A stretch of 61,221 nucleotides of DNA, filler included. It is 7 parts of 7 records of this genome, joined end to end, with 100 filler letters (N's around TTAATTAATTAA, not from the genome) between each part and the next. Parts side by side here need not be neighbours in the genome. Positions count along the whole stretch, not along the records: positions 28,338 to 42,178 come from DRR723986_19925; 6 more parts are not named here. One strand, 5' to 3'. This document shows positions 28,238-44,242 of the stretch, piece by piece. How positions within the stretch are numbered: position 1 is the first letter of the stretch; the number at the start of each line of letters is the position of its first letter. The notes below the pieces were generated by a model. The model ran no database searches, was not told the DNA's origin, and was given only the letters and a program-made list of their open reading frames with translations. The position numbers and the translations under genes were made by a program.

Positions 28238-28337
28238 NNNNNNNNNNNNNNNNNNNNNNNNNNNNNNNNNNNNNNNNNNNNTTAATTAATTAANNNNNNN
28301 NNNNNNNNNNNNNNNNNNNNNNNNNNNNNNNNNNNNN
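28238..28337. other. Artificial contig linker
   Basis: N44-TTAATTAATTAA-N44. Confidence 0.98.
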
Positions 28338-28365
28338 CGCGGTTCGAGTCCGTGTGGGGGCACCA
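28338..28365 (+). tRNA. 3' portion of a tRNA (T-arm + acceptor strand + ACCA), probably tRNA-Thr; truncated, or an att duplicate
   Basis: CGCGG-TTCGAGT-CCGTG-TGGGGGC-ACCA resembles my recollection of alphaproteobacterial tRNA-Thr(UGU); the anticodon is not in the window. Confidence 0.75.
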
Positions 28366-28659
28366 TTAAAATCAATGGGTTAGTGGTGAAATATCCTAAG
28401 GTATTCAGCTTGGGGTGCCATATGGGTGCCAAATATCCGTGACTGAAGGCTCGTTGCTTGAACTGATTCTGTACTTAGCCCTTTGAGCTCGTGCCCTTAA
28501 GCGCCGCCATGATGCCAACTAGCCGGGGTTACTTGGCCCTTTTGTCAGCCAAATCGCTACGTTCACCAAGGGGGCACCCCCCCTAATTCAGCCCCCCTGC
28601 GCGTCAGAAAGGCCCTTGTTTGATAGGTCCGCTATAAATTCGTTTTCTAATTTCGTTTG

Positions 28660-28785
28660 GGTCCAAGGTCCGAGGCACTCTGGCAAATGTCTTCGGATCG
28701 AGGTGCTCTGTTCACGGTGACCGGTTCGAGGAGCGCGGGCCTTGGACTTTGGTCCTTGGTTAGCTGTGGACGGACTAGGGTACTT
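28660..28785 (+). repeat. Degenerate heptamer array, 18 units of (G/T)GNNNNN
   Basis: ggtccaa ggtccga ggcactc tggcaaa tgtcttc ggatcga ggtgctc tgttcac ggtgacc ggttcga ggagcgc gggcctt ggacttt ggtcctt ggttagc tgtggac ggactag ggtactt; G at position 2 in 18/18 units and GG in 14/18. Confidence 0.8.
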
Positions 28786-28799
28786 TCGCGAAACGCCCC

Positions 28800-28827
28800 G
28801 CGAGTTCGAATCTCGTTTGCCCCGCCA
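28800..28827 (+). other. tRNA-like 3' end (T-arm, acceptor 3' strand, GCCA) without a recognisable 5' half
   Basis: GCGAG-TTCGAAT-CTCGT-TTGCCCC-GCCA. Confidence 0.65.
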
Positions 28828-28851
28828 CTTACACTTGCCGAAACAGATGAT

Positions 28852-28878
28852 GGGCCCTCGCGGGCCCCTTTTTCTTTT
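28852..28878 (+). terminator. Intrinsic terminator-like hairpin downstream of the tRNA-like end
   Basis: GGGCCC-tcgc-GGGCCC followed by CTTTTTCTTTT. Confidence 0.6.
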
Positions 28879-29101
28879 GGTTTCAAAGGGGTTTAGGTGC
28901 GGCGACCGCCCTTCGGAGACTGCCAAAACGGGCTAAATCAGTCTCCAATCGCCATTTGTCTCTAATCGACCGCCCTAGGCTCTCAGAAGGACGCTTTCAA
29001 AATAGTGTTTAGTTACAGATGCTTGGCGATTTTCGTCCAGCGCCCTTTTCGAAAGTGCAAATGGTCAGCAAATTTGGGTTCGAACAGAAGAGACGGTCAC
29101 A

Positions 29102-30016
29102 TTATTTGCTGGTGGCAACGATGCCCATGCCAATGGTGGCCAGGGTGGCTGCCAACAAAATTTTTGCGCCGGGTCGTTCCTCGCTGCCCAAAACGAAGGC
29201 GGCAAAGTAAATGCCCACGAATATTTCAAGCGAGCTGATGATGGCAACATGGGCCACCTTTGTGTGGGCCAGTGCAAAGACCAGCGAAATCTGCCCCATC
29301 GAGATCGAGACAGCCGTGGCCCATTGCCAGGGCCCCGAAGACTGCCAAAGGCTGCGTATGATTTGCCTGTAATGGCTGCTGAGGGTTGCTGCCAGGGCGT
29401 AAAACGCTACCCCACCAAGGGCGCCCACCAAGGTGCCAAAGGCGGCATCGGGCAAAAAGCCGATGCCAAATTTGCGCGCTACATAAGATCCCGCATAGAA
29501 AACCGCACAGAGCACGCCAAAAATCAGGCCCTGAGACAGCGCCTTGCCCGGGTTCGGCGCCTGCGATCGGGCGGGTGTTTTCAGGGTCAGCGCCACGCTG
29601 CACAAAACCAGTGCCATGCCGCCCAGTGCCATGGGGCTATACCGCTCGCCCAGCAGGAAAAAAGCCAAAAACGCAGAAAATACCGGGATCAGGCGGCGAA
29701 ACAGGCTGGCGCGAATGGCCCCCACAGCGGCGATTGCACGAAAATTGGCCAGCCGCCCCAGCACCGTTGCCAAAAGCCCGGCCACCACAAAGGCGGCGAT
29801 GGCCATGGCTATGGGCGCGCGCTGTGCGGGCCATGTTTCATGGGTGCCCAACACCGCCCATAAAACTGCAGAAAATACCGTCGTCACCAGCACCGACAGA
29901 AACACGCCATTATCCGTGCCCGCGGTGGCTGGCCGGGCTTTGGCGCCTTTTGCAATGGCTGCGCCAGAAAACCCGTAGCACACAGCCGACAGGGCGGCGA
30001 AGGCTTCCCCAATCAC
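29102..30016 (-). CDS. DMT/EamA family transporter
   Basis: About 10 hydrophobic segments in two repeats (LLGER / VLGSEER); 24 nt downstream of the ThDP gene. Confidence 0.85.
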   Translation of the reverse strand: MIGEAFAALSAVCYGFSGAAIAKGAKARPATAGTDNGVFLSVLVTTVFSAVLWAVLGTHETWPAQRAPIAMAIAAFVVAGLLATVLGRLANFRAIAAVGAIRASLFRRLIPVFSAFLAFFLLGERYSPMALGGMALVLCSVALTLKTPARSQAPNPGKALSQGLIFGVLCAVFYAGSYVARKFGIGFLPDAAFGTLVGALGGVAFYALAATLSSHYRQIIRSLWQSSGPWQWATAVSISMGQISLVFALAHTKVAHVAIISSLEIFVGIYFAAFVLGSEERPGAKILLAATLATIGMGIVATSK

Positions 30017-30040
30017 ATCACGCGTCCTTTTTAGGGCGGC

Positions 30041-31816
30041 TTAGCCACCGGTTTCTGTCATGCCTTTGGACATTGCTTCGCTATATTCTGGGGCCACGCG
30101 CGCATCGATAACTACGGCATGGCCCTGATCAAACAGCCTTTGGGCCTCGCGCAGGGCTTGGGCCAGGGCCTGGGGCGTGTGCACAGGGCCCAGCCCACGC
30201 AAGCCTTGCGCCTGTGCCAGCGCCGCAAAATCGATATCTGGGTCAGCGATGGCCTGGCCCACAGATTTATTTTCAACAGGCCGCTGGCGCATGCGCGCCA
30301 CTTTTTCCTGATGCACCTCGTCATTGAAATACGAGCGATTGTTACACACTACCAACACAAAAGGCACCTGGTAGCGCGCCCCGGTCCATAGCGCGGAAAT
30401 GCCCATCATTGTGTCGCCATCGCCCAGCACCGCCACGGGCATACGGTCGCTGTCCTGCAGCGCCAATGCCGCCCCCACCAGCATTCCTGGCCCCGAGCCG
30501 ATGCCTGCGCCGCCGTCATAGCCCAAGTAATCCAACGGGTGCGCAAAGTGGCGGCTGCCGCCATCCCACCCCAGTGGCAGGCGCACCAAACATGTGGGCC
30601 GCCCTGCCAGGCCCTCGGCCAGGGCTTGGGGCAGGGTTTGCATGCTCAGTGGCTGGTCGTTGGTCAGGTTTGGGGCGGGCAAGTTTTGGGCTGTGCTGGT
30701 GGTGGGCCCAGCGGGGTAGGCCAGCCCCATAGAGTGCGCCAGGGCCTGAATAACCGTGTCAGGCTGGGCCGCCACATGCAGATCTGCCGCGGGCTGCGCC
30801 ATATGATCAAGCGACCAACCATTGGCCAGCTGATGATCCATGCTGATATGTATCAGCGCCCCCGTGGCGCCTGCCTGTTCGATCGTGCCGGCGGTATCGA
30901 CCCAGTCAAATGCCAGCACCAAATCGGCCTTTGCCAGGTGTTTTGCCGGTGCATCTGCCAAAAAGAACGATGGCGGGCCGGAATGCGCAGGATGCACGGT
31001 GGGAAAGGTGGCGCCGGTTTTGATATCGGTGATCACCTTTGCGCCGCAGGCCTCGGCCAGCGCCACGCGCCATGCCCAATCTTGCGGGTCGCGGCTGACC
31101 CGGCCCATCAAAAACACCGGGGTTTTTGCCGCCTCCAGCATGGCCTTGATCTGGGCCACGGTTTCAGGCGCCACAGCGGGCGGCGCGGGCGGTGCGTATT
31201 TTGCCGGGTCGGGTAGGGCGATGCCCGCTGTGGCGGGCGCCTCTTGCACGCTGACATCAAAGCACACATAGGTTGGCCCATGGGGGGCTGTGCAGGCCAC
31301 GCTATGGGCGCGCATGATCGCGCTTAGCGAGGCGGGCAGGCTGGCCGGCTGGTCATCAAATTTCACATAAGGGCGCACCAATGCGCCCTGATCGCGCGAT
31401 GTGTGAATCCAATCGATCCAGGGGCGGCGCTTGTCGGCGGCGACCGGGCCAGTGGCACCAAAAATGACCATGGGCACGCGATCGCACCAGGCGTTATAAA
31501 TGGCCATGGCCGCGTGCATTAAGCCGACATTGGCATGTAAGACCACCGCCATGGGCCGGCCCGTCACTTTGGCCCAGCCATGGGCGATAGAGACGGCGTG
31601 TTCTTCGTGCAGGCAAAGCAGCATTTGCGGCTGACGATTGCCCAGATGATTGACCAAGCTGTCATGCAAGCCCCGGAAACTAGAGCCGGGGTTCAGGGCG
31701 ACATGGCGAAAGCCCAAGGCGCGGATGGCATCGGCGATCAGGTCACTGCCCCAGCGGGCGCTGTCGGTGTGGGGGTGGGGCACATCGATGTTCTGGCGTG
31801 GGTCTGTCATGGCCAT
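30041..31816 (-). CDS. Thiamine diphosphate-dependent enzyme (benzoylformate decarboxylase/acetolactate synthase superfamily)
   Basis: ALNPGSS, CLHEE (catalytic Glu), GDGD...CNN ThDP-binding motif. Confidence 0.88.
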   Translation of the reverse strand: MAMTDPRQNIDVPHPHTDSARWGSDLIADAIRALGFRHVALNPGSSFRGLHDSLVNHLGNRQPQMLLCLHEEHAVSIAHGWAKVTGRPMAVVLHANVGLMHAAMAIYNAWCDRVPMVIFGATGPVAADKRRPWIDWIHTSRDQGALVRPYVKFDDQPASLPASLSAIMRAHSVACTAPHGPTYVCFDVSVQEAPATAGIALPDPAKYAPPAPPAVAPETVAQIKAMLEAAKTPVFLMGRVSRDPQDWAWRVALAEACGAKVITDIKTGATFPTVHPAHSGPPSFFLADAPAKHLAKADLVLAFDWVDTAGTIEQAGATGALIHISMDHQLANGWSLDHMAQPAADLHVAAQPDTVIQALAHSMGLAYPAGPTTSTAQNLPAPNLTNDQPLSMQTLPQALAEGLAGRPTCLVRLPLGWDGGSRHFAHPLDYLGYDGGAGIGSGPGMLVGAALALQDSDRMPVAVLGDGDTMMGISALWTGARYQVPFVLVVCNNRSYFNDEVHQEKVARMRQRPVENKSVGQAIADPDIDFAALAQAQGLRGLGPVHTPQALAQALREAQRLFDQGHAVVIDARVAPEYSEAMSKGMTETGG

Positions 31817-31921
31817 TTCCTTATGTGGCGTGGCGATAGGGGCGCATACCGTTCAAGATTGTCGGGTGTGTTGAGGGGTGTTAAGCTGGCAAAACCCTTG
31901 CGCAAACGGGACAAGAGCAAG

Positions 31922-32464
31922 ATGAAACAAACCCAAAGCACGCCCGCCGCGACGGCAGTGGGCCAATCGGAATTTGCCCAAAACTACGCCAAAGAGCGCG
32001 TGGCCCATCTGACGCGCCTTTGTGCGCGCGGCTTTAACCGCTCGCTGACGCGGCGCCTGGCCGAACATGAGATTTCGTTTGGGCAATGGGTGTTCTTGCG
32101 CATCTTGTGGGGGGAAGAGGGGCTGACCCAGCGCGACCTGGCCGAGCGTGCCAACCTGACCGAACCCACCGTGCACACCGCCCTGGCGCGGATGCAGCAA
32201 CAAGGCCTGATCGAGCGCCGCACGCACGAGGGCAACCGCCGCAAGCAGCATGTCTATCTGACGGCGCATGGCAAAGGCCTGCGTGCCGTGCTCGAGCCTT
32301 TGGCGATCGAGGCCAATGACGTTGCTTTGCACGGGCTTGATGCGGCCCAACGCGAGGCTCTGCGCGCTGTTTTGATCCGTGTTTTGGGCAATCTCGAGGC
32401 CGATGAGGCCGCAGCGCTGGCGCGTGGCCAACGCGTGCCCCCCACCAGGGGTGGGCTGGCCTAA
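31922..32464 (+). CDS. MarR family transcriptional regulator; start re-assigned to ATG 31922
   Basis: ISFGQWVFLRILW..EGLTQRDLAERANLTEPTVHTALARM...GLIER...NRRKQHVYLT..G winged helix. Confidence 0.9.
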   Translation: MKQTQSTPAATAVGQSEFAQNYAKERVAHLTRLCARGFNRSLTRRLAEHEISFGQWVFLRILWGEEGLTQRDLAERANLTEPTVHTALARMQQQGLIERRTHEGNRRKQHVYLTAHGKGLRAVLEPLAIEANDVALHGLDAAQREALRAVLIRVLGNLEADEAAALARGQRVPPTRGGLA

Positions 32465-32486
32465 GGCCCGCCCAAGGGGGGCGCCC

Positions 32487-32951
32487 CTAGCCAAGGCTGG
32501 CCAGCCGTTGGCGCAGGCTGTCAAATGGCAAGATCTCGCGGATTGGCAGGCTGCTGTTTGCGGCCTCGGGGCTGACGCGCAGCCCCTCGCCATCCCAGGC
32601 CCACCAGTAAACGATGTTGCCGGCCTTGTCGCGGATGGGCAGGCGAAAGGTGGGAAAGGCCCGATCTGCTGCGGGCAGGCTGGCGTGGCCGATAAGCCGT
32701 ATGCCACCTGCCCCATCGGCCAGGGCGCGGCCCAGTTCCACCATGGCAACAAAGGAGGTGCTGCCCATTGCAACCGCAGATGCATCGGTTGCGCCATTGG
32801 GGGTAATGGCGCGCAATACATCGGGGTAAGGTGCGCGGATATGGGTGATTTGCACATGCCGCGTGCCCTGCGGTGTTTCAATTGCCAGCACATCGCCCGG
32901 CACTAGGCGGGCGGGCAGTGGCATAGCGGCGGGGGGTGTTTTGGTGTTCAT
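32487..32951 (-). CDS. Hypothetical protein co-transcribed with the phthalate genes
   Basis: 154-aa ORF starting 6 nt after the ophC stop; plausible globular sequence (PGDVLAIET..., FPTFRLPIRD, YWWAWDG). Confidence 0.7.
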   Translation of the reverse strand: MNTKTPPAAMPLPARLVPGDVLAIETPQGTRHVQITHIRAPYPDVLRAITPNGATDASAVAMGSTSFVAMVELGRALADGAGGIRLIGHASLPAADRAFPTFRLPIRDKAGNIVYWWAWDGEGLRVSPEAANSSLPIREILPFDSLRQRLASLG

Positions 32952-32957
32952 GGCAGT

Positions 32958-33947
32958 CTACAGCGAATACGCTTCATAGGTGGCGGGATGAAACAGCTCG
33001 TCTACCTGCAGTCGGCGCTTTGACAGGCCCTGACGGTGGTGCAGCTCTAGGAATGTGTCCAGCACATGTTCGTTTCCAGCCACCCCATATGTCCAGATAT
33101 CGGGGCCAATAAGCTGGCGTGCCGTTGTCAGCGTATCTTCGACGAAAGGCATGGTCACTTTCGTGGCCGAGGTATCGGCAAGCGCCTGCTGTGCCATGGT
33201 TTTGGCCGCAGAAAACGCCTTAAGCAGGGCGCCGGGCAGCCATGGGTGCGCATCCGCCAAGCTTTGGCGCAGGCCCAAAACATGCATGATCGGGAAAATA
33301 CGGGTGCGCGCATAATGCTGCGAGGCCGCGGTGATGCCATCGGCAAAAAGGCGGCCCACATTGGGGTGGCCTTCGTCAAAACAGTTTAATGCGCGCGGCC
33401 CGATAAACCCGTCGATATCGCCATCGCGCAGCATTTGATCCAGCGTTGCCCCCTCTGGCGCAGGGGTGATGCGCACATCATCGGGCGTTTGGACGGCAAT
33501 TTTTTCCGGGCGGCCGGGGCTGTGCATGCCGCCGCGCACCCAGTCGATGTCGCTGGGCTTGACGCCATAATCTTCTAATATGCCGCGTGCCCAAACATTG
33601 GCCGTCAGCTGCCATTCGGCAATGCCAATACGGCGCCCTTTCAGATCTGCAGGCTGTGCGATGCCGCGATCGGTGCGGATATAGATCGAAGAATGGCGAA
33701 ATGCGCGCGACAAAAACACCGGGATCGCGACATAGGGCGCATCGCCCTGCGCGCGCTTGACGCAATACGAGGAAAACGACAGCTCTGACACGTCAAAAGC
33801 TTGGTGGCGGAAGGCGCGGAAAAACATTTCCTCGGGCGACAAAAGCTGCGTGATCGGCGTGACACCATCAATTTGCACCCGCCCGTCATGGATGGGGCGT
33901 GTGCGGTCGTAATCGCCCATGGCGATAGACAGGGTAAGATTGGCCAA
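32958..33947 (-). CDS. ophC: 4,5-dihydroxyphthalate decarboxylase (OphC/Pht5-like)
   Basis: LSIAMGDYDRTR...DGRVQIDGV...PEEMFFRAFR...FDVSELSFSSY, PVFLSRAFRH, IFPIMH. Confidence 0.88.
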   Translation of the reverse strand: MANLTLSIAMGDYDRTRPIHDGRVQIDGVTPITQLLSPEEMFFRAFRHQAFDVSELSFSSYCVKRAQGDAPYVAIPVFLSRAFRHSSIYIRTDRGIAQPADLKGRRIGIAEWQLTANVWARGILEDYGVKPSDIDWVRGGMHSPGRPEKIAVQTPDDVRITPAPEGATLDQMLRDGDIDGFIGPRALNCFDEGHPNVGRLFADGITAASQHYARTRIFPIMHVLGLRQSLADAHPWLPGALLKAFSAAKTMAQQALADTSATKVTMPFVEDTLTTARQLIGPDIWTYGVAGNEHVLDTFLELHHRQGLSKRRLQVDELFHPATYEAYSL

Positions 33948-33971
33948 GATAGTCTCCCTTGCGTGTTTCTT

Positions 33972-35132
33972 TTAGGGCAGCTCCACAAAGCCGCCCGTTT
34001 GCGCCGATTTCAAAATGGCATGGCATAGTTTCAGGCTGTCAGCCCCCCATTGCCCCGCCTGCAAAGGGGCTTGGCCTTGGCGCACCGCGGCGTAAAGCGC
34101 GCGCAGCACCGGGCTGCGTGGGGTAGGATCTGGGGGGGTGGGCTGAAAGCTGCGCTGGGTGTCGCCCCAAATCTCAATGCCCTCGGGGGTAAGGCGCAGA
34201 TCAGCGCGATCGCAGCTGATGATGACAGGGCCAAAATGTTCGGCACAGGGGGCAGGCGCCGCGGCCTCGACCGCGCCATAGGTGCGCGCCCCTTTCAGCG
34301 CGGCCTCCTCGGACGGGCTGGCAACCGCGGCCAGTGCCTGCCGGGCCTTGCCATAGGCTTGGGGGTCTTTGGGGTGGCCCAATTCACCCACCCAGCCTTG
34401 GGCGGCATCGCTGTCGTAATGGGCATAGCCGGAATAGGTGAGGCTGGCAAAGCCGCCCCCGGCAAAGCTGATCAGGCAGGAATAGGCCCCTTCGGTCGGG
34501 CGGGTGCGATCCCATGCGCCCGTCATGGCGGCAACCCGCAAGGCGGGCTGGCCCATTAAGGCACGCACCACATCAATTTGGTGAATGGCTTGGCTGAAAA
34601 TCACGCCGCCGCCTTGGTTGGTGTCCAGCTCTTCGGGGCGGCGGGGGCGATACAGAAAATCGGTGTAATTGGTGGCATGGATCATACGCACCTGGCCAAA
34701 TTGCCCGCTGTCCAAAAGGCGTCGGGCTGCCTCGACCGGTTGATCGAAACTATGGCTTGGGCCGGTGATCAGGTGAACGCCGGCCTGATTGGCCGCGTGC
34801 ACGATGGCATCGGCATCTGCCTGGCTGATGGCCAAAGGTTTGTCGACAAGTATGTGCTTGCCCGCTGCGGCTGCCGCTTCGGCATGGGCGCGGTGCATTT
34901 GGTGTGGCGTGGCGATATACACGGCCTCGACCTGCGGATCGGCGCACATTTGCGCCACATCGCTATAGGCCGTGCCGCCAAATTCCACGCAGAATGCATC
35001 ACGGCTGGCTTGGCGGGGTGCGGCACAGGCCACCAAACGCACATGCGGGTCGTGGCGCAGGCTGGGCAGCGTCAGCATAAAGCCGCGCCCCAGCCCCGCC
35101 ACACCAAGACCTATGGGATCACAGATCGACAA
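33972..35132 (-). CDS. ophB: Phthalate cis-dihydrodiol dehydrogenase (OphB/Pht4-like, Gfo/Idh/MocA family); probable TTG start at 35132
   Basis: GVAGLGR, YIATPHQ, HSFD, NYTDFLYRPRRPEEL, GGGVIFSQAIHQIDVVR; AGGAG RBS lies within the end of the reductase gene. Confidence 0.85.
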   Translation of the reverse strand: MSICDPIGLGVAGLGRGFMLTLPSLRHDPHVRLVACAAPRQASRDAFCVEFGGTAYSDVAQMCADPQVEAVYIATPHQMHRAHAEAAAAAGKHILVDKPLAISQADADAIVHAANQAGVHLITGPSHSFDQPVEAARRLLDSGQFGQVRMIHATNYTDFLYRPRRPEELDTNQGGGVIFSQAIHQIDVVRALMGQPALRVAAMTGAWDRTRPTEGAYSCLISFAGGGFASLTYSGYAHYDSDAAQGWVGELGHPKDPQAYGKARQALAAVASPSEEAALKGARTYGAVEAAAPAPCAEHFGPVIISCDRADLRLTPEGIEIWGDTQRSFQPTPPDPTPRSPVLRALYAAVRQGQAPLQAGQWGADSLKLCHAILKSAQTGGFVELP

Positions 35133-36063
35133 CCAGATCTCCTGATTTTGCCCGTGACACACAGATCATGATGTAGTCTGATTTTTCCTCGTCCATCAGC
35201 ACCAGATCGCGGTGATCGGCCTCGCCCGAAACAAGGCGGCATTTGCAGGTGCCGCAGGTGCCGCTTTCGCAAGAGCTGACGGTTTTCTCGCCCGCGTCGC
35301 GCAGCGCCTCTAGAATGGTGCGGTCGGCTGGCACCAATATTTCGCGCCCGCTGCTGGCCAGTTTTACGCTAAAGGCTGTGTCATCGGCGCGCACGGCCTC
35401 GACGCCTGCGAAATCTTCGAAATGCACACGCCCCTCGGCCCAATGGCCAGACAGGGCCTTGATTTCCTCCATCAAGGGCGCCGGGCCACAGCAATAGACA
35501 TGTTCGGTGCTGGGGGTTTCGAAATGGTCCCAAAAATCGTAGAAATTATCGATATCGCCCTGATCATGGTGCACCGTGGCGCCGGGAATGGCGGCAACCT
35601 CGTCTAGATAGGCGGTTTCTTCCGGGCTGCGGGTGCAATAGATCAGCTTGAACGGCGTGCCCTGCGCTGCCAGCGCCCGCGCCATCGACAAAATCGGCGT
35701 AATACCGATACCGCCGGCAATCAGCAGATATTTCGACGCGGCCACCAGCGAAAAATCGTTTTCGGGCGGGTCTACCACCAGCTGGGTGCCAGGCTGCGCC
35801 TGTGTGTGCATGGCTTCAGAGCCACCGCGCGACTGCGCCTCGCGTTTCACGGCAATCACATAGGTATCTGGCGCTGTGCCATCATTGACCAGCGAATAGC
35901 GCCGCATCGCGCCGCCCGGTGTTTCGATGGTGATATGGGCGCCGGGGGCAAAGCCGGGCAGCGGGCCGCCTTCGGGGCGGGCCAGTGTAAATTCAGCAAT
36001 ATCGCGCGCCAGCTGGCGCCGCCCCGTAACCTGAAGCGCCATTTTCCCTGTTGAACCATCCAT
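35119..36063 (-). CDS. ophA1: Phthalate dioxygenase reductase (PDR/VanB family, FMN + [2Fe-2S])
   Basis: RRYSL, SRGGS, AGGIGITP, YCCGP, SSCESGTCGTC...ICVSRA. Confidence 0.88.
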   Translation of the reverse strand: MDGSTGKMALQVTGRRQLARDIAEFTLARPEGGPLPGFAPGAHITIETPGGAMRRYSLVNDGTAPDTYVIAVKREAQSRGGSEAMHTQAQPGTQLVVDPPENDFSLVAASKYLLIAGGIGITPILSMARALAAQGTPFKLIYCTRSPEETAYLDEVAAIPGATVHHDQGDIDNFYDFWDHFETPSTEHVYCCGPAPLMEEIKALSGHWAEGRVHFEDFAGVEAVRADDTAFSVKLASSGREILVPADRTILEALRDAGEKTVSSCESGTCGTCKCRLVSGEADHRDLVLMDEEKSDYIMICVSRAKSGDLVVDL

Positions 36064-36102
36064 CGCGCTGCCCCTTTGTTGAATACTCTTGCGGTTTGTT
36101 AT

Positions 36103-36114
36103 TTAGATATCTAA
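36103..36114. promoter_or_regulatory. Palindromic operator TTAGATATCTAA in the divergent ophA1/ophA2 promoter
   Basis: Perfect 12-bp palindrome; lies just downstream of a minus-strand TTGACT -35-like hexamer (36121-36126). Confidence 0.7.
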
Positions 36115-36175
36115 GCTAATAGTCAATACATGTGCATAGAATGCATGTTCTAAGCCCAAAAGAGAGGAGCCGGCC

Positions 36176-37459
36176 GTGTTATCTGTGGAAGAAAACGATC
36201 TTCTGACCAAAATCGATAATGACGCCCCCATGGCGCTGCTGATGCGTCAGCACTGGACGCCTGTGTGCCTTGTCGAAGAAGTGGCCGAACCTGACGGCAA
36301 GCCGCTGCGTGTCGAGGCGATTGGCCGTAAATACGTGTGTTTCCGCGATACCGAAGGCCGGCTGGGCCTGCTGGACGAGCTGTGCCCGCACCGCAAGGCA
36401 TCGCTTGTGTATGGGCGCAACGAGGAATGCGGGCTGCGTTGCCTGTATCATGGCTGGAAGTTCGATGTAGATGGCAATTGCGTGGCCATGTCGTCAGAGC
36501 CCGAAGAATCGCCGCTGCATGGCAAGGTTAAACACCGTTCGTATCCCACGCGCGAATGGGGTGGGTTTGTGTGGGCATGGCTGGATACCCAGCGCGAGGC
36601 GCCAGACTTTCAGGCCCCCGCCTTTGCCCCAACCGAAGACACCGATGTGGCGATTTTGAAAATTCGCATTCCGGCCAATTGGGCGCAAATCACCGAAGGG
36701 CAGATTGATTCGGCGCATTCGTCGTCGCTGCATTCCTCAGACATGAAACCTGCCCGCGTCAAAGGCGCTGCCGCCGATGACAAGGCGTGGTATCGCCCCT
36801 CGACCGATAAGTCGCCGCGCATGCAAACCCAAACCACGCCTTATGGGTTTCATTACGCTGCGATCCGTAAGCCGATAAAGAACGCAGCCACCCATAACTA
36901 TTTGCGCATCACGGAATATATCGCGCCTTTCACATCGCTGATCCCGCCGAACAATAATTATAATGTGGCCACGGTGATTGTGCCTATCAGCGATGAGGAA
37001 TCGTATTTCCACTTCATCGCATGGGGTGGGCAGGCGTGCCCCTCGACCACCGAGTGGCGCAAGTTTGCACATACGCAGCCCGGTATTGACCTAGATGATA
37101 AATGGCGCTCGCTGCGGACCTTGGACAATGATTTCTTGCAAGATCGGCAGATGATGAAGCTGGGCAATTTTACCGGCGTTTTGGGCATTCCAAACCAAGA
37201 TTTGGTGATGTGGGTGTCTATGGGTGCGCGGGTTGATCGCTCGTCCGATCTGCTGGGCGCATCAGATTTGGCGATCGTCGAATTCCGCCGCCTGATGAGC
37301 GATGCCGCCCGCCGCGTGGCCGAAGGGGGCGCCGCCATTGGCACCGAAGAGCCGCGCGTGACCCATGCCACCATTTCATCGAAAGAGGGGGTTTTCCCCA
37401 AAGACGTCGATTGGCGCAGCTTGGGCCAAGAACAGGCACAGGTTTCGGCCGCCGAATAG
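36176..37459 (+). CDS. ophA2: Phthalate 4,5-dioxygenase oxygenase subunit (Rieske, OphA2/Pht3-like)
   Basis: Rieske CPHR...CLYHGW; EGQIDSAHSSSLH mononuclear Fe site; RPSTDKSPRMQ, LIPPNN, NFTG...NQD, LGASDLAIVEFRR. Confidence 0.88.
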   Translation: MLSVEENDLLTKIDNDAPMALLMRQHWTPVCLVEEVAEPDGKPLRVEAIGRKYVCFRDTEGRLGLLDELCPHRKASLVYGRNEECGLRCLYHGWKFDVDGNCVAMSSEPEESPLHGKVKHRSYPTREWGGFVWAWLDTQREAPDFQAPAFAPTEDTDVAILKIRIPANWAQITEGQIDSAHSSSLHSSDMKPARVKGAAADDKAWYRPSTDKSPRMQTQTTPYGFHYAAIRKPIKNAATHNYLRITEYIAPFTSLIPPNNNYNVATVIVPISDEESYFHFIAWGGQACPSTTEWRKFAHTQPGIDLDDKWRSLRTLDNDFLQDRQMMKLGNFTGVLGIPNQDLVMWVSMGARVDRSSDLLGASDLAIVEFRRLMSDAARRVAEGGAAIGTEEPRVTHATISSKEGVFPKDVDWRSLGQEQAQVSAAE

Positions 37460-37528
37460 GCCGAAACCCATCCGCCCGCGCAAAGAGGCTTGACAGATTG
37501 TCGCGGGCGGCTAACTCATGATAAAAAG

Positions 37529-37541
37529 ATAGATATCTAAG
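37529..37541. promoter_or_regulatory. Second copy of the operator (ATAGATATCTAAG) upstream of the ALDH-TAXI operon
   Basis: Shares TAGATATCTAAG with 36104-36115; TTGACA at 37490-37495 upstream. Confidence 0.7.
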
Positions 37542-37600
37542 TTATCTCTGGCTTTACGGAACTGGGCGCCAAAACTGGGGCCGCACCAAAGGGGGGAGAC

Positions 37601-39091
37601 ATGCCAGACCAGTCCACCACGGCCGCACCGGGCAATTTGGGGTCGTGGACGCCAAAGGGGCAGTTTGTGGGGGGCGTTTGGGCGCAGGGCTTGGGCGCGG
37701 CGCGCGCTGTGCATTCCCCTGCCGATGGGCGTTTGCTGGCCACGCTGCCCGATGCGGCGGCGCAAGATCTTGATCGCGCCGTGGCCGCTGCGGCACAGGC
37801 GCAAAAGGGCTGGGCATTGCAGGGGCCGATGGCGCGCGCACGCGCCTTGAAAGAGGCCGCCGCCCGCCTGCGCGCCCATGCCGATGAGCTGGCGATGATT
37901 GATGCGCTCGATTGTGGCAACCCGCTGACTGGCATGATCTTCGATGTCAATCTTGGCGCCACGCTGATGGAGTTTTTCGCGGGCCTGACCACCGAATTAA
38001 AAGGCGAAACCATTCCCCAAGCCGGTGGAAAACTGACATTTGTCACCCGCCAGCCCTTGGGTGTGGTGGCGCGGCTGGTGCCGTTCAACCACCCGTTTAT
38101 GTTTGCCGCCGCAAAAATTGCAGCCCCCCTCGCGGCGGGCAATGCGGTGATTTTGAAACCGTCCGAGGAAACCCCGCTCAGCGCCTTGCGGATGGCCGAA
38201 CTGATTGCTGATCTCTTTCCCGAGGGTGTGCTAAACGTGCTGACCGGCGGGGCCGATCTGGGTGCCGCGATCTGCGCCCACCCTGGTATTTCGGCGGTTG
38301 GGCTGATTGGCAGCGTGCCGACAGGGCGCGCCGTGTTGCGGGGCGGGGCTGATACGCTCAAGCGCACGCAGCTGGAATTGGGCGGCAAAAACGCCTTGGT
38401 CATTTGCGAAGATGCAGATCTCGATGGTGCCATTGCGGGTGCGGTCAAAGGCATGAACCTGGGCTGGACGGCCGGGCAATCGTGCGGCTCGACCAGCCGC
38501 GTGTTGGTGCACAAACGCCATTACGCCCATGTGGTCAATGCGCTGGCGCAGGCCTTTGATGCGGTGCAGCTGGGCCATCCGGCACTGGCCAGCACGCATA
38601 TGGGGGCGCTTTCAACCCGAGCACAATATGAAAAAGCCCGCGGGTTTGTGCAACGTGCCGCAGCGGCTGGCGCGCGCATTGCGGCCGGTGGTGGCGATGC
38701 GCCGGTGCCGGCGCCGGGTTATTACCTGCGCCCAACGCTGATTTGCGACATCGGCCCCGAGGCGGAAATTGCCAATCAAGAGGTGTTTGGCCCGGTGCTG
38801 TGCGTGCTGCCCTGGCAGGACGAGGCCGAGATGCTGGGTATTGTGAACGGTCTCGATCTGGGGCTGACCGCCTCGATCTGGACAAAAGATCTGGATCGGG
38901 CCCTGCGCCTGACCCAGAAAATCGAGGCTGGCTATGTCTGGGTAAACGACGCCAGCGATCATTACCTTGGCGCGCCTTTTGGGGGCGTCAAGCAGTCTGG
39001 CCTTGGGCGCGAGGAATGTCTGGAGGAGATGTTCGCCTATACCGAGGCCAAAACAGTCACCTTGGTGCCAAACGCAGCATCAGGGGGATAG
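37601..39091 (+). CDS. Aldehyde dehydrogenase, PhdK (2-carboxybenzaldehyde dehydrogenase)-like
   Basis: PFNHPFMF, LELGGKN, GMN.GW..GQSCGSTSR catalytic Cys, HYLGAPFGGVKQSGLGREECLEE; these are signature segments I associate with the PhdK-like subfamily. Confidence 0.8.
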   Translation: MPDQSTTAAPGNLGSWTPKGQFVGGVWAQGLGAARAVHSPADGRLLATLPDAAAQDLDRAVAAAAQAQKGWALQGPMARARALKEAAARLRAHADELAMIDALDCGNPLTGMIFDVNLGATLMEFFAGLTTELKGETIPQAGGKLTFVTRQPLGVVARLVPFNHPFMFAAAKIAAPLAAGNAVILKPSEETPLSALRMAELIADLFPEGVLNVLTGGADLGAAICAHPGISAVGLIGSVPTGRAVLRGGADTLKRTQLELGGKNALVICEDADLDGAIAGAVKGMNLGWTAGQSCGSTSRVLVHKRHYAHVVNALAQAFDAVQLGHPALASTHMGALSTRAQYEKARGFVQRAAAAGARIAAGGGDAPVPAPGYYLRPTLICDIGPEAEIANQEVFGPVLCVLPWQDEAEMLGIVNGLDLGLTASIWTKDLDRALRLTQKIEAGYVWVNDASDHYLGAPFGGVKQSGLGREECLEEMFAYTEAKTVTLVPNAASGG

Positions 39092-39124
39092 CGCGCAGAT
39101 CTTCATGCGAACAGGGAGGAAGAT

Positions 39125-40108
39125 ATGAAATTCAAGGCAATTACTTTGGCTATGGGTGTCGCGGTTTGCGCAACCGTAGCGCAGGCGGCATCAATCAACA
39201 TGAACCTGTCGGGCGGCAACCCGGGCGGCTTGTGGTCGCTGCTTGGTGCCGGCATGGACCGGGCAGTAAAGGCAGATGATGCCGATGCGGTAATCACCTA
39301 TCAGGCCACCGGTGGCGGCTTTGCCAACCTGGCGCTGCTGGCCGCCAACCGCACCGATATGGGGCTGGTGCATGACGCCGAGGTGAAACTGGCGCTGAAT
39401 GGGCAAGAGCCGTTCAAAGCCCCGGTCACAAATCTTAAGGCCATCGGCTATATGTACAACTGGGCGCCGATGCACTTTTTCCTAAAGCAGTCGATCGCCG
39501 AGCAGTATAACATCGACAGCCTCGACGATATTGCCACCTCGGGTGCGCCGCTGACAATTGGCATCAACCGTTCGGGCAACATCACCAGCGATGTGGCGCT
39601 GTTCATGCTGGCACAGGCCGGGCTGACCGAAGAAAAGCTGAAGGCGCACGGCGGGTCGTTCGTGCGCGCGGGCGCCAATGAACAGGGCGATCTGATGCAG
39701 GATGGGCGCATCGAAATGGCCACAAACGGCATTTTTATTCGCCATTCCTCGTTCCGCGCGATCGATGAAAACACCGATGTTGTGCTGCTGGATGTGCCGC
39801 AAAGCGTGATCGATGCCACCAACGAGGCATTTGGCACCTCGCCCTTTACCATTCCGGGCGGCAGCTATTCGAAACAGCCCAATGACGTGCAGACAATGGC
39901 GCTGGGCGCCATGGTTGTGGCAACCGATGCCATGTCAGATGAAATGGCCGCCAAACTGGCCGGTGGTTTCCTGAAAAACATCGATGAAATCCGCAATGTG
40001 CACAAAGCGATGAACGCGCTTAGCCCTGAATTGATGGTCAGCCAAAAAGTGCTGCCCTTCCACCCCGGTGCCGCTGCTGTGTACCGTGAAGCGGGGCTGA
40101 TCGAGTGA
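39125..40108 (+). CDS. TAXI family TRAP transporter solute-binding subunit
   Basis: Signal peptide; GGNPGGLW, TGGG..N, IPGGSY, LPFHPGA..Y.E.G. Confidence 0.9.
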   Translation: MKFKAITLAMGVAVCATVAQAASINMNLSGGNPGGLWSLLGAGMDRAVKADDADAVITYQATGGGFANLALLAANRTDMGLVHDAEVKLALNGQEPFKAPVTNLKAIGYMYNWAPMHFFLKQSIAEQYNIDSLDDIATSGAPLTIGINRSGNITSDVALFMLAQAGLTEEKLKAHGGSFVRAGANEQGDLMQDGRIEMATNGIFIRHSSFRAIDENTDVVLLDVPQSVIDATNEAFGTSPFTIPGGSYSKQPNDVQTMALGAMVVATDAMSDEMAAKLAGGFLKNIDEIRNVHKAMNALSPELMVSQKVLPFHPGAAAVYREAGLIE

Positions 40109-42006
40109 TCGCAAATCTTGTTGCAACAGGCCGTCGGCGCTCCTTCCAGGGGGTGCCGGCGCATGTGCTAACCGTGTTGGCGGCGGGGTTCGCCCTGTGG
40201 GTGATTTATGCCAACGTTTTTGTCATATCTGACCCGCTGGTGTTGGGCATTTTGTTTGTGTCTGGCATTTTGACGTTGCTGTTTCCGGTGATCGGGCATT
40301 CGCCAACGGCGCCCGATGCGCCCACTGTGCTGGATTGGGCCTTGTGTGCGCTTAGCTTGGCATCGGGTGTGTTCTTTTTCGTCAATGCTGCGGCAATATC
40401 TGATCGCATCACCTTGCTGGATGCCTTCACTGGCCCGCAATTCTTTTTCGGCACAATGATTTTGCTGCTGACGCTAGAGGCCACGCGCCGCACAACCGGC
40501 GCTGGGCTGACCGGCATCGTGGTGTTGTTTTTGGCCTACAACTGGTTTGGCTACCTGCTGCCACCGCCCTTTGGGCATGGCATATCTGAATTCAGCTATC
40601 TTCTGGACATTTTGGTGTTTACCACCGATGGCGTCTTTGGTGTGCCCATTCAGGTGGTGGCAAGCTATGTGTTCCTGTTTGTCATGTTTGGCACCTTGCT
40701 GTCCAAGGCGGGCGGTGGCGAGTTCTTTTTCAACCTCGCCTCTGCCGCAACAGGAAACAGCCGGGGTGGCCCAGCCAAGGTGGCGGTGATTTCCTCGGGG
40801 CTTTACGGCACGATGTCTGGCAGCCCCACATCTGATGTCGTGGCAACTGGGTCGATCACCATACCGATCATGAAACGTTTGGGCTATTCCAAACGCTTTG
40901 CTGGCGCCGTCGAAGTGGCCGCATCGACCGGGGGCAGTGCCATGCCGCCCATCATGGGCTCGGCTGCGTTTATCTTGGCCGAATATACAGGCACGGCTTA
41001 TCGCGATGTGGTTTACGCTGCGCTGATCCCGGCCATGGTGTATTATGTGGGCGTATTTTTGCAGGTGCATCTACGCGCCGTGCGGCGCGACCTGCGCCCA
41101 TACGAGGGCGAAATTCCCCGCCTTAGCACCACCTTTGCCGAAGGCTGGCCATTCATCGTGCCGATTGCCGTCATCGTCGGCATGCTTTGGGTAGGTTATT
41201 CGCCGGTGATGACTGCGGGTGCCGGGGCTTTGGGGGTTTTGGTGGGCACAGCGCTCAGCAAACGCACCCGTATGCGCCCTTGGCAGGTGGTCGAGGCGCT
41301 GGCTGAAACCACGCTGCGCATCCTGCCCGTGGCAGGCGCTTGCGCGGCCGCCGGTCTGGTGATTGGTGGGTTGTCGATGACAGGGCTTGGCATGAAGGCG
41401 GCCAATGTCATCATTACCCTTTCGGGGGGCGAGCTGGGCTGGACGCTGATCTTGGCGGCGGTGGTGACTATTATCCTTGGGTTGGGTATGCCCACCCCAT
41501 CGGCCTATATTCTGGCGGCGGTGCTGGTGGGCCCGGCGCTGACAAAGGTGGGCTTGCCGCTGCTGGAAAGCCATATGTTCTTGCTTTACTACGCCATCCT
41601 GTCGGCGCTGACCCCACCCATTGCGGTGGCGGCTTTGGCGGCTGCGGCGATTGCCGAGGAAGACCCGTTCATCATTGCCTTTGATGCTGTGCGTTTGGCC
41701 GCTGTTGGCTTTTTCATGCCCTTTGTCTTTTTGTGGAACCCGGCCATTTTGGGGTCGGGCATAGCTGTGGAAATTGTCATGGCATGTATCGGCGGTGTTG
41801 TCGGCGCCACAGCGATTGCTGTGTCGTTCGAGTGGCTGGGCAAGGGGCATACCGGGCTGATCCGGTGGCCGCTGCGTGCGCTGTTGTTGGTTGGGGCTGC
41901 TGCGGCTGTGGCACCCAACATGCTGGTGGCGGCGCTGGGCATTCTGGCCACTGGCGCCTTAAGCTGGTTTTTGTTGGTGCGCGCGCCGCATGTAAAAGCG
42001 CCGTAA
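40105..42006 (+). CDS. TRAP transporter fused 4TM/12TM permease
   Basis: GGPAKVAV.SS...G..SGS, EVAASTGG..MPPIMGSAAF, LGLGMPT, TPP.A; GTGA overlap with the binding-protein gene. Confidence 0.92.
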   Translation: MIANLVATGRRRSFQGVPAHVLTVLAAGFALWVIYANVFVISDPLVLGILFVSGILTLLFPVIGHSPTAPDAPTVLDWALCALSLASGVFFFVNAAAISDRITLLDAFTGPQFFFGTMILLLTLEATRRTTGAGLTGIVVLFLAYNWFGYLLPPPFGHGISEFSYLLDILVFTTDGVFGVPIQVVASYVFLFVMFGTLLSKAGGGEFFFNLASAATGNSRGGPAKVAVISSGLYGTMSGSPTSDVVATGSITIPIMKRLGYSKRFAGAVEVAASTGGSAMPPIMGSAAFILAEYTGTAYRDVVYAALIPAMVYYVGVFLQVHLRAVRRDLRPYEGEIPRLSTTFAEGWPFIVPIAVIVGMLWVGYSPVMTAGAGALGVLVGTALSKRTRMRPWQVVEALAETTLRILPVAGACAAAGLVIGGLSMTGLGMKAANVIITLSGGELGWTLILAAVVTIILGLGMPTPSAYILAAVLVGPALTKVGLPLLESHMFLLYYAILSALTPPIAVAALAAAAIAEEDPFIIAFDAVRLAAVGFFMPFVFLWNPAILGSGIAVEIVMACIGGVVGATAIAVSFEWLGKGHTGLIRWPLRALLLVGAAAAVAPNMLVAALGILATGALSWFLLVRAPHVKAP

Positions 42007-42023
42007 GCAACATGTTACATGAC

Positions 42024-42063
42024 AAAAAAAGGGCGCTGATCACTGGGTCGGCGCCCTTTTCTT
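42024..42063. terminator. Bidirectional intrinsic terminator
   Basis: AAAAAAAGGGCGCTGATC-actg-GGTCGGCGCCCTTTTCTT. Confidence 0.75.
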
Positions 42064-42178
42064 GCATAAGGGTCAAGAGAGCTGTGTCAGAATAACCCCG
42101 CTTGAGATAGGGCAGGGAGCGGGCTAGCGCCTGTTCCTGAGACCATCTTACAAATGGATCAGAGGCCAAATATGCACT

Positions 42179-42278
42179 NNNNNNNNNNNNNNNNNNNNNN
42201 NNNNNNNNNNNNNNNNNNNNNNTTAATTAATTAANNNNNNNNNNNNNNNNNNNNNNNNNNNNNNNNNNNNNNNNNNNN
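42179..42278. other. Artificial contig linker
   Basis: N44-TTAATTAATTAA-N44; abrupt switch to AT-rich sequence. Confidence 0.98.
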
Positions 42279-43105: not shown

Positions 43106-44116
43106 CTAAAAATCAATATCAAAGTCTTCAACAGAAAATTGAACTCCCATACCTGAAGCGCCCATGGCGCCAACGGATCCTGCTGATCCTTCAATGCCTG
43201 GTTCAGCTGGGTCTTGACCTTCTAATGGTGTTCCTGGGCTGCCTGCTTTTCCTCCTGCTCCAGCATCACCAGGATATCCACCCTGTGCAAGAGCTGTAAT
43301 TCTTGACTGAATATCTGCCGCTGAGGGATGTAAAAATACATACACACTTCCACCTGAGCCTCCGCTACCGCCAATTCCTCCGTTTCCTCCGTTACCACCA
43401 TTTCCTGGTCGTTTGGTTTTTTTATCTGTGCTTTTACCATCTTTTCCCGATCCTCCGTCTCCACCAGAACCACCTCGACCTCCTTTGCCGCCATTTACAT
43501 AGAATTTAATCGGATATCCTACATCCTTAGTTTTATAAAAGAACATTTTAGAACTGTTTAGATCTGTGACTCTCATGTAGTACAAATCATCTTCTACATT
43601 TTTATAAATATGCACTGTAATGTCATGACCATTTGTACCATCTGATCCGCTAAATCCATCATCACCATCCTTTCCATCTCTAAATAACAAAGCTGTCCCT
43701 CCATCTGAGCCTTTGGTTCCTTCCTCACCATCTGTGCCGTTAAAGCTCAACTCTAAATCCCCCTTGTAATTGAATGGAATAGCTTTTTGTGTGGTGAAAT
43801 TCAGTTCCTTTTTAACATAAGTTGCCGTTACAAAAATGGTGTCTTTTCTAAACGAAACAGGGTATTTGTCTATGCTGACTTTTCCACTAGAATATTGAGC
43901 ACCTTTTACAATATAATCTAAGCCCGATTTTGAACTGATATCTTTTTCACCACCTTTTGAGTACTTCAGGTAGGTGCTTAGCCTAAAACTATGACCATAA
44001 TTAATTTGAGCGTCATTACTCAATCGAATTTCTATACCAACAGGTTCTCCCAGCTTTTTTGTGCCACAAGCGGTCAGTAGAAAGCACAGGCAAATAATAT
44101 ATGGTCTTAATTTCAT
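43106..44116 (-). CDS. Lipoprotein with Gly-rich (Gly-X-Y-like) C-terminal half; start re-assigned to ATG 44116
   Basis: Lipobox LLTAC; GxxGxxG runs (GGKGGRGGSGGDGGSGKDG, GNGGNGGNGGIGGSGGSGG). Confidence 0.7.
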   Translation of the reverse strand: MKLRPYIICLCFLLTACGTKKLGEPVGIEIRLSNDAQINYGHSFRLSTYLKYSKGGEKDISSKSGLDYIVKGAQYSSGKVSIDKYPVSFRKDTIFVTATYVKKELNFTTQKAIPFNYKGDLELSFNGTDGEEGTKGSDGGTALLFRDGKDGDDGFSGSDGTNGHDITVHIYKNVEDDLYYMRVTDLNSSKMFFYKTKDVGYPIKFYVNGGKGGRGGSGGDGGSGKDGKSTDKKTKRPGNGGNGGNGGIGGSGGSGGSVYVFLHPSAADIQSRITALAQGGYPGDAGAGGKAGSPGTPLEGQDPAEPGIEGSAGSVGAMGASGMGVQFSVEDFDIDF

Positions 44117-44242
44117 GTAGATCTTTAGTTGGGATAAAAATAAAATAAAAGCGAGGGCTTTCAAATATTATTGAGAATTAGTTAAATTCGTGCTCGCCTT
44201 TATGGGCTAGAATTTATTAATTATTGCAAGAAAATTTAAGCT

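Follow-up and report, generated by a model that had tools for sequence, protein, structure and literature searches.

Introduction

The breakdown of plasticisers and of polycyclic aromatics runs through phthalate as a hub intermediate. To our knowledge, biological entry into phthalate has been described only by ester hydrolysis and by the oxidation of 2-carboxybenzaldehyde formed on the phenanthrene route, and we know of no classical phthalate (pht or oph) cluster of Comamonas, Burkholderia or Pseudomonas that carries a thiamine diphosphate (ThDP)-dependent enzyme or an aldehyde dehydrogenase (ALDH). Here we describe a metagenomic contig, positions 28338-42178 (13.8 kb, G+C about 0.6) of the 61-kb stretch of DNA that was analysed (the window), on which pht genes lie together with genes for a ThDP-dependent enzyme and an ALDH. 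These two enzymes probably form a decarboxylase-dehydrogenase funnel into the phthalate pathway.

Part of this arrangement has a published counterpart. The 'phdK-pht' cluster, present in Thalassospira spp., Roseovarius indicus and Rhodobium orientis, comprises genes for an ALDH, pht3, pht2, pht4, pht5, a TRAP transporter, a MarR regulator and a chemotaxis receptor (PMC9604089, Microbiol Spectr 2022). Thalassospira GO-4 can use 2-carboxybenzaldehyde for growth, with phthalate 4,5-dihydrodiol and 4,5-dihydroxyphthalate as metabolites; the authors add that transcriptomic or enzymatic proof is still missing (PMC9604089). The ALDH of GO-4 has 40.6% similarity to PhdK of Nocardioides sp. KP7, whose phdK gene is grouped with phdI and phdJ and not with pht genes (PMC9604089). 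In the main text the words thiamine, acetolactate and pyrophosphate do not occur, and the ThDP gene goes unmentioned (PMC9604089).

The published set (ALDH, pht3, pht2, pht4, pht5, TRAP and MarR) is complete on our contig, and the ThDP gene adjoins the MarR gene both in the Rhodobium orientis genome of that article and on a Thalassospira plasmid. The initial annotation of the contig had presented the ThDP enzyme and the ALDH as a putative new upper funnel. The part made up of ALDH, pht, TRAP and MarR genes was published in 2022, together with growth on 2-carboxybenzaldehyde, and only the ThDP extension is undescribed in the literature searched. The pht core and the ALDH are thus known, and the conserved extension, undescribed as far as our searches show, is made up of the ThDP enzyme plus the 2-hydroxyacid dehydrogenases of some relatives. 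Searches for literature linking a ThDP enzyme to 2-carboxybenzaldehyde or to phthalate clusters, those of the Phaeobacter plasmids included, or dealing with the family PRK08327/NF006203, returned none.

The phthalate 4,5-dioxygenase core

The gene content of the contig was taken from Pfam and NCBIfam scans, which recovered every gene named in the initial annotation at the same coordinates:

29102-30016, minus strand: EamA/DMT-family membrane transporter (Pfam EamA, 63 bits)
30041-31816, minus strand: ThDP-dependent enzyme of an uncharacterised family (TPP_enzyme_N/M/C domains)
about 31919-32464, plus strand: MarR-family regulator (Pfam MarR, 50.9 bits; start codon picked by eye within the open reading frame (ORF) 31580-32464)
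32487-32951, minus strand: conserved 154-residue protein directly after OphC (no Pfam or NCBIfam match)
32958-33947, minus strand: OphC/Pht5-type, 4,5-dihydroxyphthalate decarboxylase-like protein of periplasmic-binding-protein fold (weak NMT1 and Phosphonate-bd matches)
33972-35162, minus strand: OphB-like GFO/IDH/MocA dehydrogenase (Pfam GFO_IDH_MocA and C-terminal domain)
35119-36063, minus strand: phthalate dioxygenase reductase-type protein, FNR-like NAD-binding and plant-type 2Fe-2S (Pfam NAD_binding_1 and Fer2)
36176-37459, plus strand: oxygenase component of phthalate 4,5-dioxygenase, OphA2/Pht3 (Rieske and LigXa_C domains)
37601-39091, plus strand: NAD(P)-dependent ALDH (Pfam Aldedh, 479 bits, full length)
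39125-40108, plus strand: TAXI-family TRAP solute-binding protein (TIGR02122, 142 bits)
40105-42006, plus strand: fused TRAP permease of DctQM type (TIGR02123, 532 bits)

The oxygenase matches PDO-KF1 of Comamonas testosteroni KF1 (PDB 7fjl/7v25) over residues 1-416 with 567 bits (E 2e-169). In the study on that enzyme, Arg207 and Arg244 are described as specificity determinants that bind the vicinal carboxylates of phthalate and whose alanine variants are inactive; Arg231, Ser179, Ser182, Phe278, Phe280, Phe339, Asp178, His181 and His186 are named further, as are Ile256 and Asn266 (PMC8649396). Eleven of these 13 residues are identical in the oxygenase of the contig (Asp178, Ser179, His181, Ser182, His186, Arg207, Arg231, Arg244, Ile256, Phe278 and Phe280), and two differ, the ring-stacking Phe339 being replaced by Ile and Asn266 by Thr. 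Homologues annotated pht3, ophA1, pht4 and pht5 on the Marinibacterium plasmid pLA6_006 are 63-76% identical to the window proteins, with 63% for the reductase (ophA1), 64% for the GFO/IDH/MocA dehydrogenase (pht4) and 69% for the OphC-type protein (pht5). The initial annotation had proposed a phthalate 4,5-dioxygenase pathway, and the 567-bit match, the two specificity arginines and the presence of reductase, dehydrogenase and decarboxylase bear it out; judged by this homology, the contig very probably encodes a genuine pathway of this kind.

The pcaH gene was found in eight of ten genomes with a ThDP-pht cluster, among them a Lutimaribacter metagenome-assembled genome (MAG), on another contig, and pca genes adjoin the cluster on Phaeobacter, Salipiger and Roseomonas plasmids. 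The absence of phthalate esterase, phdI/phdJ and protocatechuate dioxygenase genes from the contig, to which the initial annotation had pointed, says little, since the contig covers only 13.8 kb of a window joined from separate contigs and the related Lutimaribacter genome carries its pcaH elsewhere.

Linkage of the ThDP gene with phthalate genes

A scan with one genome per species yielded 80 loci encoding relatives of the ThDP enzyme, 35 of them at at least 57% identity (clade A) and 45 remoter. Within 10 kb of the ThDP gene, 32 of the 35 clade-A loci encode OphA2, OphA1 and OphB; in the other three (L005, L018 and L032) the contig is cut on the pht side. Conservation of the ThDP gene beside oph genes, a test that had been set beforehand, is thus observed at all clade-A loci except those on cut contigs. 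A MarR homologue is found in all 35 clade-A loci, an OphC homologue in 33 and an ALDH in 32. A tree of 76 members of the ThDP family, built without five cluster members of odd length, puts the alphaproteobacterial pht-linked proteins into a single branch of 34 rows (SH-aLRT 97). The four rows of this branch scored as lacking oph genes correspond to the three cut contigs and to one ORF-calling miss.

The order of the genes varies considerably. In the window type, TRAP-TAXI-ALDH-OphA2 is divergent from OphA1-B-C, followed further on by MarR divergent from ThDP. The Bosea type shows OphA2-ALDH-ThDP on one strand, and a third type, that of Sulfitobacter, Tranquillimonas and Oceanicella, reads OphA1-OphB-OphC-x-ALDH-ThDP-MarR-TAXI-TRAP-OphA2. 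The ThDP gene follows the pht genes on one strand in Bosea and in several Roseobacter-group loci, and in Herbaspirillum and Massilia an ALDH-ThDP pair stands beside pht genes including nadC; the linkage of ThDP and pht genes therefore spans two proteobacterial classes. Dozens of genomes share this gene set, in several gene orders, which puts the clustering far beyond chance. The extended module is also evidently mobile, since several of the plasmids are typed conjugative and transposase genes flank the clusters. On the plasmids these genes are of IS3, IS5 or TnsA type (at 5242-8167 in L091 and at 2932-9979 in L095).

Mobility also suits a different explanation, in which the ThDP/ALDH pair serves another substrate, such as benzoylformate, 4-hydroxybenzoylformate or a non-aromatic carboxylated 2-oxo acid, and shares islands or plasmids, and maybe regulation, with pht genes, its product bypassing the phthalate dioxygenase. 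Not only do the clusters lie on plasmids with flanking transposases, the remoter family members also occur in varied contexts devoid of pht genes, next to genes for TTT transporters, UbiD/UbiX, an aminotransferase or TauD. However, the pht linkage persists in 32 of 35 loci despite rearrangements and across two proteobacterial classes, in Bosea and in Roseobacter-type loci the two genes stand on one strand, between pht genes, and no other ring-attacking genes that would handle a benzoate-type product recur there. Taking these points together with the protein features discussed below, we regard this explanation as rather unlikely.

A gene of the quinolinate phosphoribosyltransferase type, nadC, is a known companion of the phthalate operons of Burkholderia (B. 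cepacia). It lies within many of the phthalate clusters seen here, such as those of Thalassospira (L091), of the Phaeobacter and Salipiger plasmids (L092/L094) and of L034/L035 and L036, and is absent from the contig of the window.

The ThDP/ALDH pair as an optional module

An even sample of 401 alphaproteobacterial genomes contained ten with an OphA2 homologue, one of them the centre genome. The other nine pht clusters all lack a ThDP orthologue near the pht genes and an orthologous ALDH. In six of these nine genomes no ThDP match reaches E 1e-80, and the remaining three have paralogues of 44-46% identity elsewhere; the ALDH search of the nine loci gave just two matches, at 29-30% identity and several kb away. 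What these loci do contain are the core genes and MarR, with both TAXI and TRAP matches in four of the nine. The TAXI protein is 61-87% identical to that of the window in extended clusters, whereas the figure is 32-42% in core clusters without ThDP enzyme and ALDH. As the nine clusters lack both genes, the ThDP/ALDH pair is an optional add-on module. The co-occurrence of the two with oph genes that the initial annotation had asked about is thereby refined: they behave as one unit, jointly absent from all nine core clusters and joined in the ALDH tree described below.

Members of the ThDP family were present in 23 of the 401 genomes. A ThDP protein of at least 57% identity was carried by the centre genome alone, so that the even sample provided no independent case for the rule that this ThDP clade implies pht genes. 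Two or three paralogues of the family, sometimes in tandem, were seen in L037, L056, G133, G174, G307, G314 and G403.

The ALDH is 69% identical to that of Rhodobium orientis and reaches no NCBIfam equivalog cut-off. Its tree, from which three of 60 sequences were left out for length, contains a branch of 46 rows (SH-aLRT 94) that unites all oph-linked ALDHs with many ThDP-adjacent ALDHs of loci without pht genes. An ALDH is moreover encoded in 32 of the 45 remoter ThDP loci, in 25 of these within 3 kb. Both observations suggest that the ALDH is an ancestral partner of the ThDP family rather than a specific relative of PhdK. The label 'PhdK-like' of the initial annotation is therefore not upheld: it rests on generic ALDH similarity, and the published figure for GO-4 is only 40.6% similarity to the KP7 enzyme (PMC9604089). 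We nevertheless propose that the protein acts as a 2-carboxybenzaldehyde dehydrogenase.

Features of the ThDP enzyme

The ThDP enzyme stays below the NCBIfam cut-offs, its best match being NF006203 (PRK08327, 'thiamine pyrophosphate-requiring protein') with 217.3 against 456 bits. In benzoylformate decarboxylase (BFDC), Glu47 activates the cofactor, and His70, Ser26 and His281 are catalytic. A HMMER alignment to the BFDC of Pseudomonas putida places E71, H94 and S45 opposite Glu47, His70 and Ser26. E71 and H94 do not vary across the 76 family rows; at position 45, all 34 clade-A rows have Ser, but 33 of the 39 others have Ala. The cofactor motif GDG...NN, here G465-D466-G467 and N492-N493, is invariant in the family. 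A460 and F464, which belong to the hydrophobic phenyl pocket of BFDC, fall opposite the invariant N498 and R510, in a region where an eight-residue insertion makes the alignment uncertain.

An AlphaFold2 model of the enzyme (pLDDT 89, pTM 0.92) has as its best PDB folds 6qsi and 7orx (TM 0.72-0.83, E 3e-33 to 1e-31, 23-24% identity), with other ThDP enzymes following closely behind. The analogy with BFDC drawn in the initial annotation gains from these data, as the enzyme retains residues matching Glu47, His70 and Ser26 and the nearest solved folds are 4-hydroxybenzoylformate decarboxylases. We propose from these features that the protein is a 2-oxo-acid (aryl-glyoxylate) decarboxylase. The same folds can be read in favour of another substrate, as they act on 4-hydroxybenzoylformate, and so can the very few conserved positions at which pht-linked and other family members differ.

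The fold search also bears on the type of reaction. Benzaldehyde lyase, 2-hydroxyacyl-CoA lyase and carboxyethylarginine synthase are almost as close structurally (E about 1e-30 against 3e-33), and the enzyme might accordingly be a lyase or carboligase of the benzaldehyde-lyase or 2-hydroxyacyl-CoA-lyase type that acts on a 2-hydroxyketone or on 2-carboxybenzaldehyde. Against this stand the retained counterparts of His70 and Ser26, which are typical of BFDC, as well as the steady pairing with ALDH and the occurrence of 2-hydroxyacid dehydrogenases in some loci, which fit a sequence from 2-hydroxy acid to 2-oxo acid, aldehyde and acid. A lyase or carboligase is in our view very improbable, and we keep to a decarboxylase.

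Regulation

Two copies of a 12-bp palindrome, the only sites with at most one mismatch in the 61-kb window, lie upstream of oxygenase, reductase and ALDH genes; a hairpin is found between them:

36103-36114: perfect 12-bp palindrome TTAGATATCTAA in the divergent promoter region of reductase and oxygenase, putative MarR operator
37442-37467, plus strand: terminator-like GC-rich hairpin with 9-bp arms just behind the oxygenase stop codon (from a scripted search for inverted repeats)
37529-37540: palindrome copy ATAGATATCTAA with one mismatch, upstream of the ALDH gene

The copy between OphA1 and OphA2 is found with at most two mismatches in 27 of 28 related loci tested, as against 86 matches in 1.53 Mb overall, and the palindrome occurs at pht promoters of both alpha- and betaproteobacterial clusters. 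Its position upstream of ALDH is conserved in L001-L003, L006 and L019. Sulfitobacter-type loci have copies upstream of TAXI, and in four loci (L004, L008, L009 and L019) one lies within 400 bp upstream of the ThDP gene. We infer from this distribution that the palindrome is a candidate MarR operator, and MarR would then probably control the pht and ALDH promoters through it.

Proposed pathway

Relatives give a hint at the chemistry. One module is common to conjugative plasmids of Phaeobacter (eight records, identical in coordinates) and a Salipiger plasmid; as these records share protein accessions, they represent one lineage. The module consists of pca genes, ALDH, nadC, ThDP, a '2-hydroxyacid dehydrogenase', MarR, TAXI, TRAP, OphA2, an 'alpha-hydroxy acid oxidase', OphA1, OphB and OphC, and the '2-hydroxyacid dehydrogenase' gene abuts the stop codon of the ThDP gene. 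On a Rhizobium plasmid the ThDP gene is followed by that of a flavin mononucleotide (FMN) oxidase, 57% identical, and in four Bosea pht loci a D-2-hydroxyacid dehydrogenase homologue lies beside OphB. Genes of these two kinds also neighbour remoter members of the ThDP family. The analogy with the mandelate route drawn in the initial annotation is strengthened by the Phaeobacter/Salipiger pht cluster, which includes genes for both an FMN alpha-hydroxy-acid oxidase and a D-2-hydroxyacid dehydrogenase.

On this basis the following sequence of steps can be proposed. Aromatic acids would be transported by the TAXI-TRAP system and EamA. In some relatives, the FMN alpha-hydroxy-acid oxidase and the D-2-hydroxyacid dehydrogenase would generate the 2-oxo acid from both enantiomers of 2-carboxymandelate. 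The ThDP enzyme would catalyse the non-oxidative decarboxylation of an ortho-carboxylated aryl-glyoxylate, in the simplest case that of phthalonate (2-carboxybenzoylformate) to 2-carboxybenzaldehyde. The ALDH would then oxidise 2-carboxybenzaldehyde to phthalate, a step suggested by the growth and metabolite data available for the Thalassospira strain with a homologous cluster (PMC9604089). Rieske oxygenase and reductase are predicted, by strong homology and conserved substrate-binding residues, to convert phthalate into the 4,5-cis-dihydrodiol, from which the GFO/IDH/MocA dehydrogenase and the OphC-type decarboxylase would, again by strong homology, form protocatechuate; this in turn would be cleaved by pca genes encoded elsewhere.

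Phthalonate is put forward because it is the only 2-oxo acid that would give phthalate by decarboxylation and oxidation within a phthalate cluster, and as the substrate of the ThDP enzyme it is a tentative choice. A link to oxidation products of naphthalenes or naphthoquinones, as suggested in the initial annotation, is likewise speculative. Equally tentative is the wider view that a phthalonate decarboxylase, the ALDH and, on some plasmids, D-/L-specific 2-hydroxyacid dehydrogenases make up an undescribed plasmid-borne 'ortho-carboxy-mandelate pathway' of marine and soil Proteobacteria, by which 2-carboxymandelate, phthalonate and 2-carboxybenzaldehyde would be channelled into phthalate catabolism. 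For the locus as a whole, a phdK-pht-type cluster extended by a two-enzyme upper funnel resembling the lower mandelate pathway, we see the chances as evenly balanced. The funnel interpretation of the initial annotation thus stands in part: the pathway, the ThDP linkage and the module speak for it, but the ALDH cluster had already been published and the likeness to PhdK is generic.

As the gene order leaves the order of reactions open, the funnel could also lie below the dioxygenase. Dioxygenase, dehydrogenase and OphC would then act first on phthalonate to give 3,4-dihydroxyphenylglyoxylate, and the ThDP enzyme and ALDH would lead from there via protocatechualdehyde to protocatechuate, a chemistry that parallels the 3,4-dihydroxymandelate branch of the mandelate pathway. 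However, the oxygenase retains the two arginines by which the vicinal carboxylates of phthalate are held. Thalassospira fed with 2-carboxybenzaldehyde formed phthalate dihydrodiol and 4,5-dihydroxyphthalate, and since the dihydrodiol of phthalate arose from the aldehyde, aldehyde oxidation precedes dioxygenation in this organism (PMC9604089). We consider the reversed order improbable, and prefer a funnel upstream of phthalate.

Several findings weigh against such a funnel or against phthalonate as its substrate. Besides the nine sampled core clusters that do without the pair, L004 and L036 keep the ThDP gene with no ALDH within 10 kb. On the side of the enzyme, the score against the BFDC family NF005485 is 155.8 bits (cut-off 493), identity to any solved decarboxylase is 22-24%, and the ThDP family has no characterised member. 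No residue could be assigned to BFDC His281, as the HMMER alignments stop before this region or are unreliable there. The family is highly conserved, the pht-linked and the other members having 113 invariant positions in common and just two that are strictly clade-specific, neither of them informative; a search of the family alignment for clade-specific residues marking an ortho-carboxyphenyl pocket found none. The region between ThDP and MarR in the window holds no palindrome copy within three mismatches. Contigs from RNA libraries of four studies cover both the ThDP gene and the pht genes, with DNA carry-over possible, and those over the ThDP gene give no level, strand or induction. Finally, our searches found no literature on the microbial catabolism of phthalonate, 2-carboxymandelate or phthalide-3-carboxylate, nor a known environmental source of phthalonate or 2-carboxymandelate.

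If the proposal holds, a decarboxylase step upstream of 2-carboxybenzaldehyde would be a new entry point into phthalate, and ortho-carboxylated aryl-glyoxylates or mandelates would be real environmental substrates. It would also be the first function assigned within a widespread ThDP family whose members are named in databases just 'thiamine pyrophosphate-binding protein'. The module is carried by conjugative plasmids of cultivable strains of Phaeobacter, Salipiger and Thalassospira and is hence experimentally tractable.

The contig, its host and neighbouring features

The window consists of seven pieces with G+C contents from 0.33 to 0.65, separated by six artificial linkers (N44-TTAATTAATTAA-N44) at these window positions:

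9098-9197: artificial linker
21779-21878: artificial linker
28238-28337: artificial linker
42179-42278: artificial linker
48246-48345: artificial linker
55573-55672: artificial linker

The joined contigs probably derive from different organisms, so that arguments from neighbourhood are invalid across linkers. A contig of an uncultured Lutimaribacter MAG (L090) has 95.3% nucleotide identity to the pht contig over 13 kb, with proteins 95-99% identical. This match makes a Roseobacter-group bacterium a well-supported host. The stretch was found in metagenomes of 15 studies from estuary, seawater and urban sources.

On the pht contig, the EamA gene starts 24 nt downstream of the ThDP gene, a spacing that suggests a common transcription unit, and MarR is divergent from ThDP. 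EamA homologues are present in nine of the 35 clade-A loci, and a DMT gene adjoins the ThDP gene on the Marinibacterium plasmid. The 154-residue ORF is kept in 16 of the 35 and called 'hypothetical' in plasmid records; some of its language-model neighbours (ESM Atlas) are labelled Imm26, which is a weak lead. A 346-residue ORF at 31853-32893 on the minus strand was rejected as a gene, being an antisense frame of MarR with no family.

By visual reading, the start of the contig (28338-28367) resembles the 3' end of a tRNA gene (GGTTCGAGTCC...CACCA). Contigs of three RNA-library runs agree with these 30 bases and diverge after them, and the following 730 bases or so (28368-29100) have a lower G+C and no convincing ORF. 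The tRNA-like start may mark the site at which a catabolic island integrated; scans of the contig with ARAGORN and Rfam gave nothing above threshold, the tRNA-like start included. Elsewhere in the window, a Bacteroidota-like contig holds three tandem paralogous genes of about 838 codons (317-8477, minus strand) with FG-GAP repeats, DUF7619 and a type-IX-secretion sorting tail, and a contig of low G+C (0.36) encodes a glycine-rich putative lipoprotein of 352 residues without a Pfam family (43106-44164, minus strand).

Comparison with known systems

With the proteobacterial Pht2-5/OphA1,A2,B,C pathway (PDB 7V25) the contig shares oxygenase, reductase, GFO/IDH/MocA dehydrogenase and a decarboxylase of periplasmic-binding-protein fold; unlike the contig, the nine sampled core clusters have neither the ThDP enzyme nor the ALDH. 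The phdK-pht type comes closer. A Thalassospira lucentensis plasmid (L091) is collinear with the contig, with TRAP, TAXI, ALDH ('phdK') and pht3 divergent from pht2, pht4, pht5 and MarR, and with proteins 56-79% identical. The contig differs from this type by an EamA gene after the ThDP gene and by the lack of a visible chemotaxis receptor or nadC. For the ALDH, the proposed reaction is the same as that of PhdK of strain KP7 (EC 1.2.1.78), and automated annotation calls homologues in related clusters phdK.

The ThDP enzyme resembles 6qsi and 7orx, the 4-hydroxybenzoylformate decarboxylases of Pseudomonas fluorescens Pf-5 and Rhodococcus jostii RHA1, which are aryl-glyoxylate decarboxylases, by a narrow margin over other ThDP enzymes. 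With BFDC (MdlC) it has the counterparts of Glu47, His70 and Ser26 in common, yet at 22-24% identity and under the NCBIfam cut-off. Altogether, the proposed module would follow the same logic as the lower mandelate pathway, in which the FMN-dependent (S)-mandelate dehydrogenase MdlB, MdlC and the benzaldehyde dehydrogenase MdlD lead from the 2-hydroxy acid over aryl-glyoxylate and aldehyde to the acid; unlike in that pathway, its product would feed phthalate dioxygenase and not benzoate catabolism.

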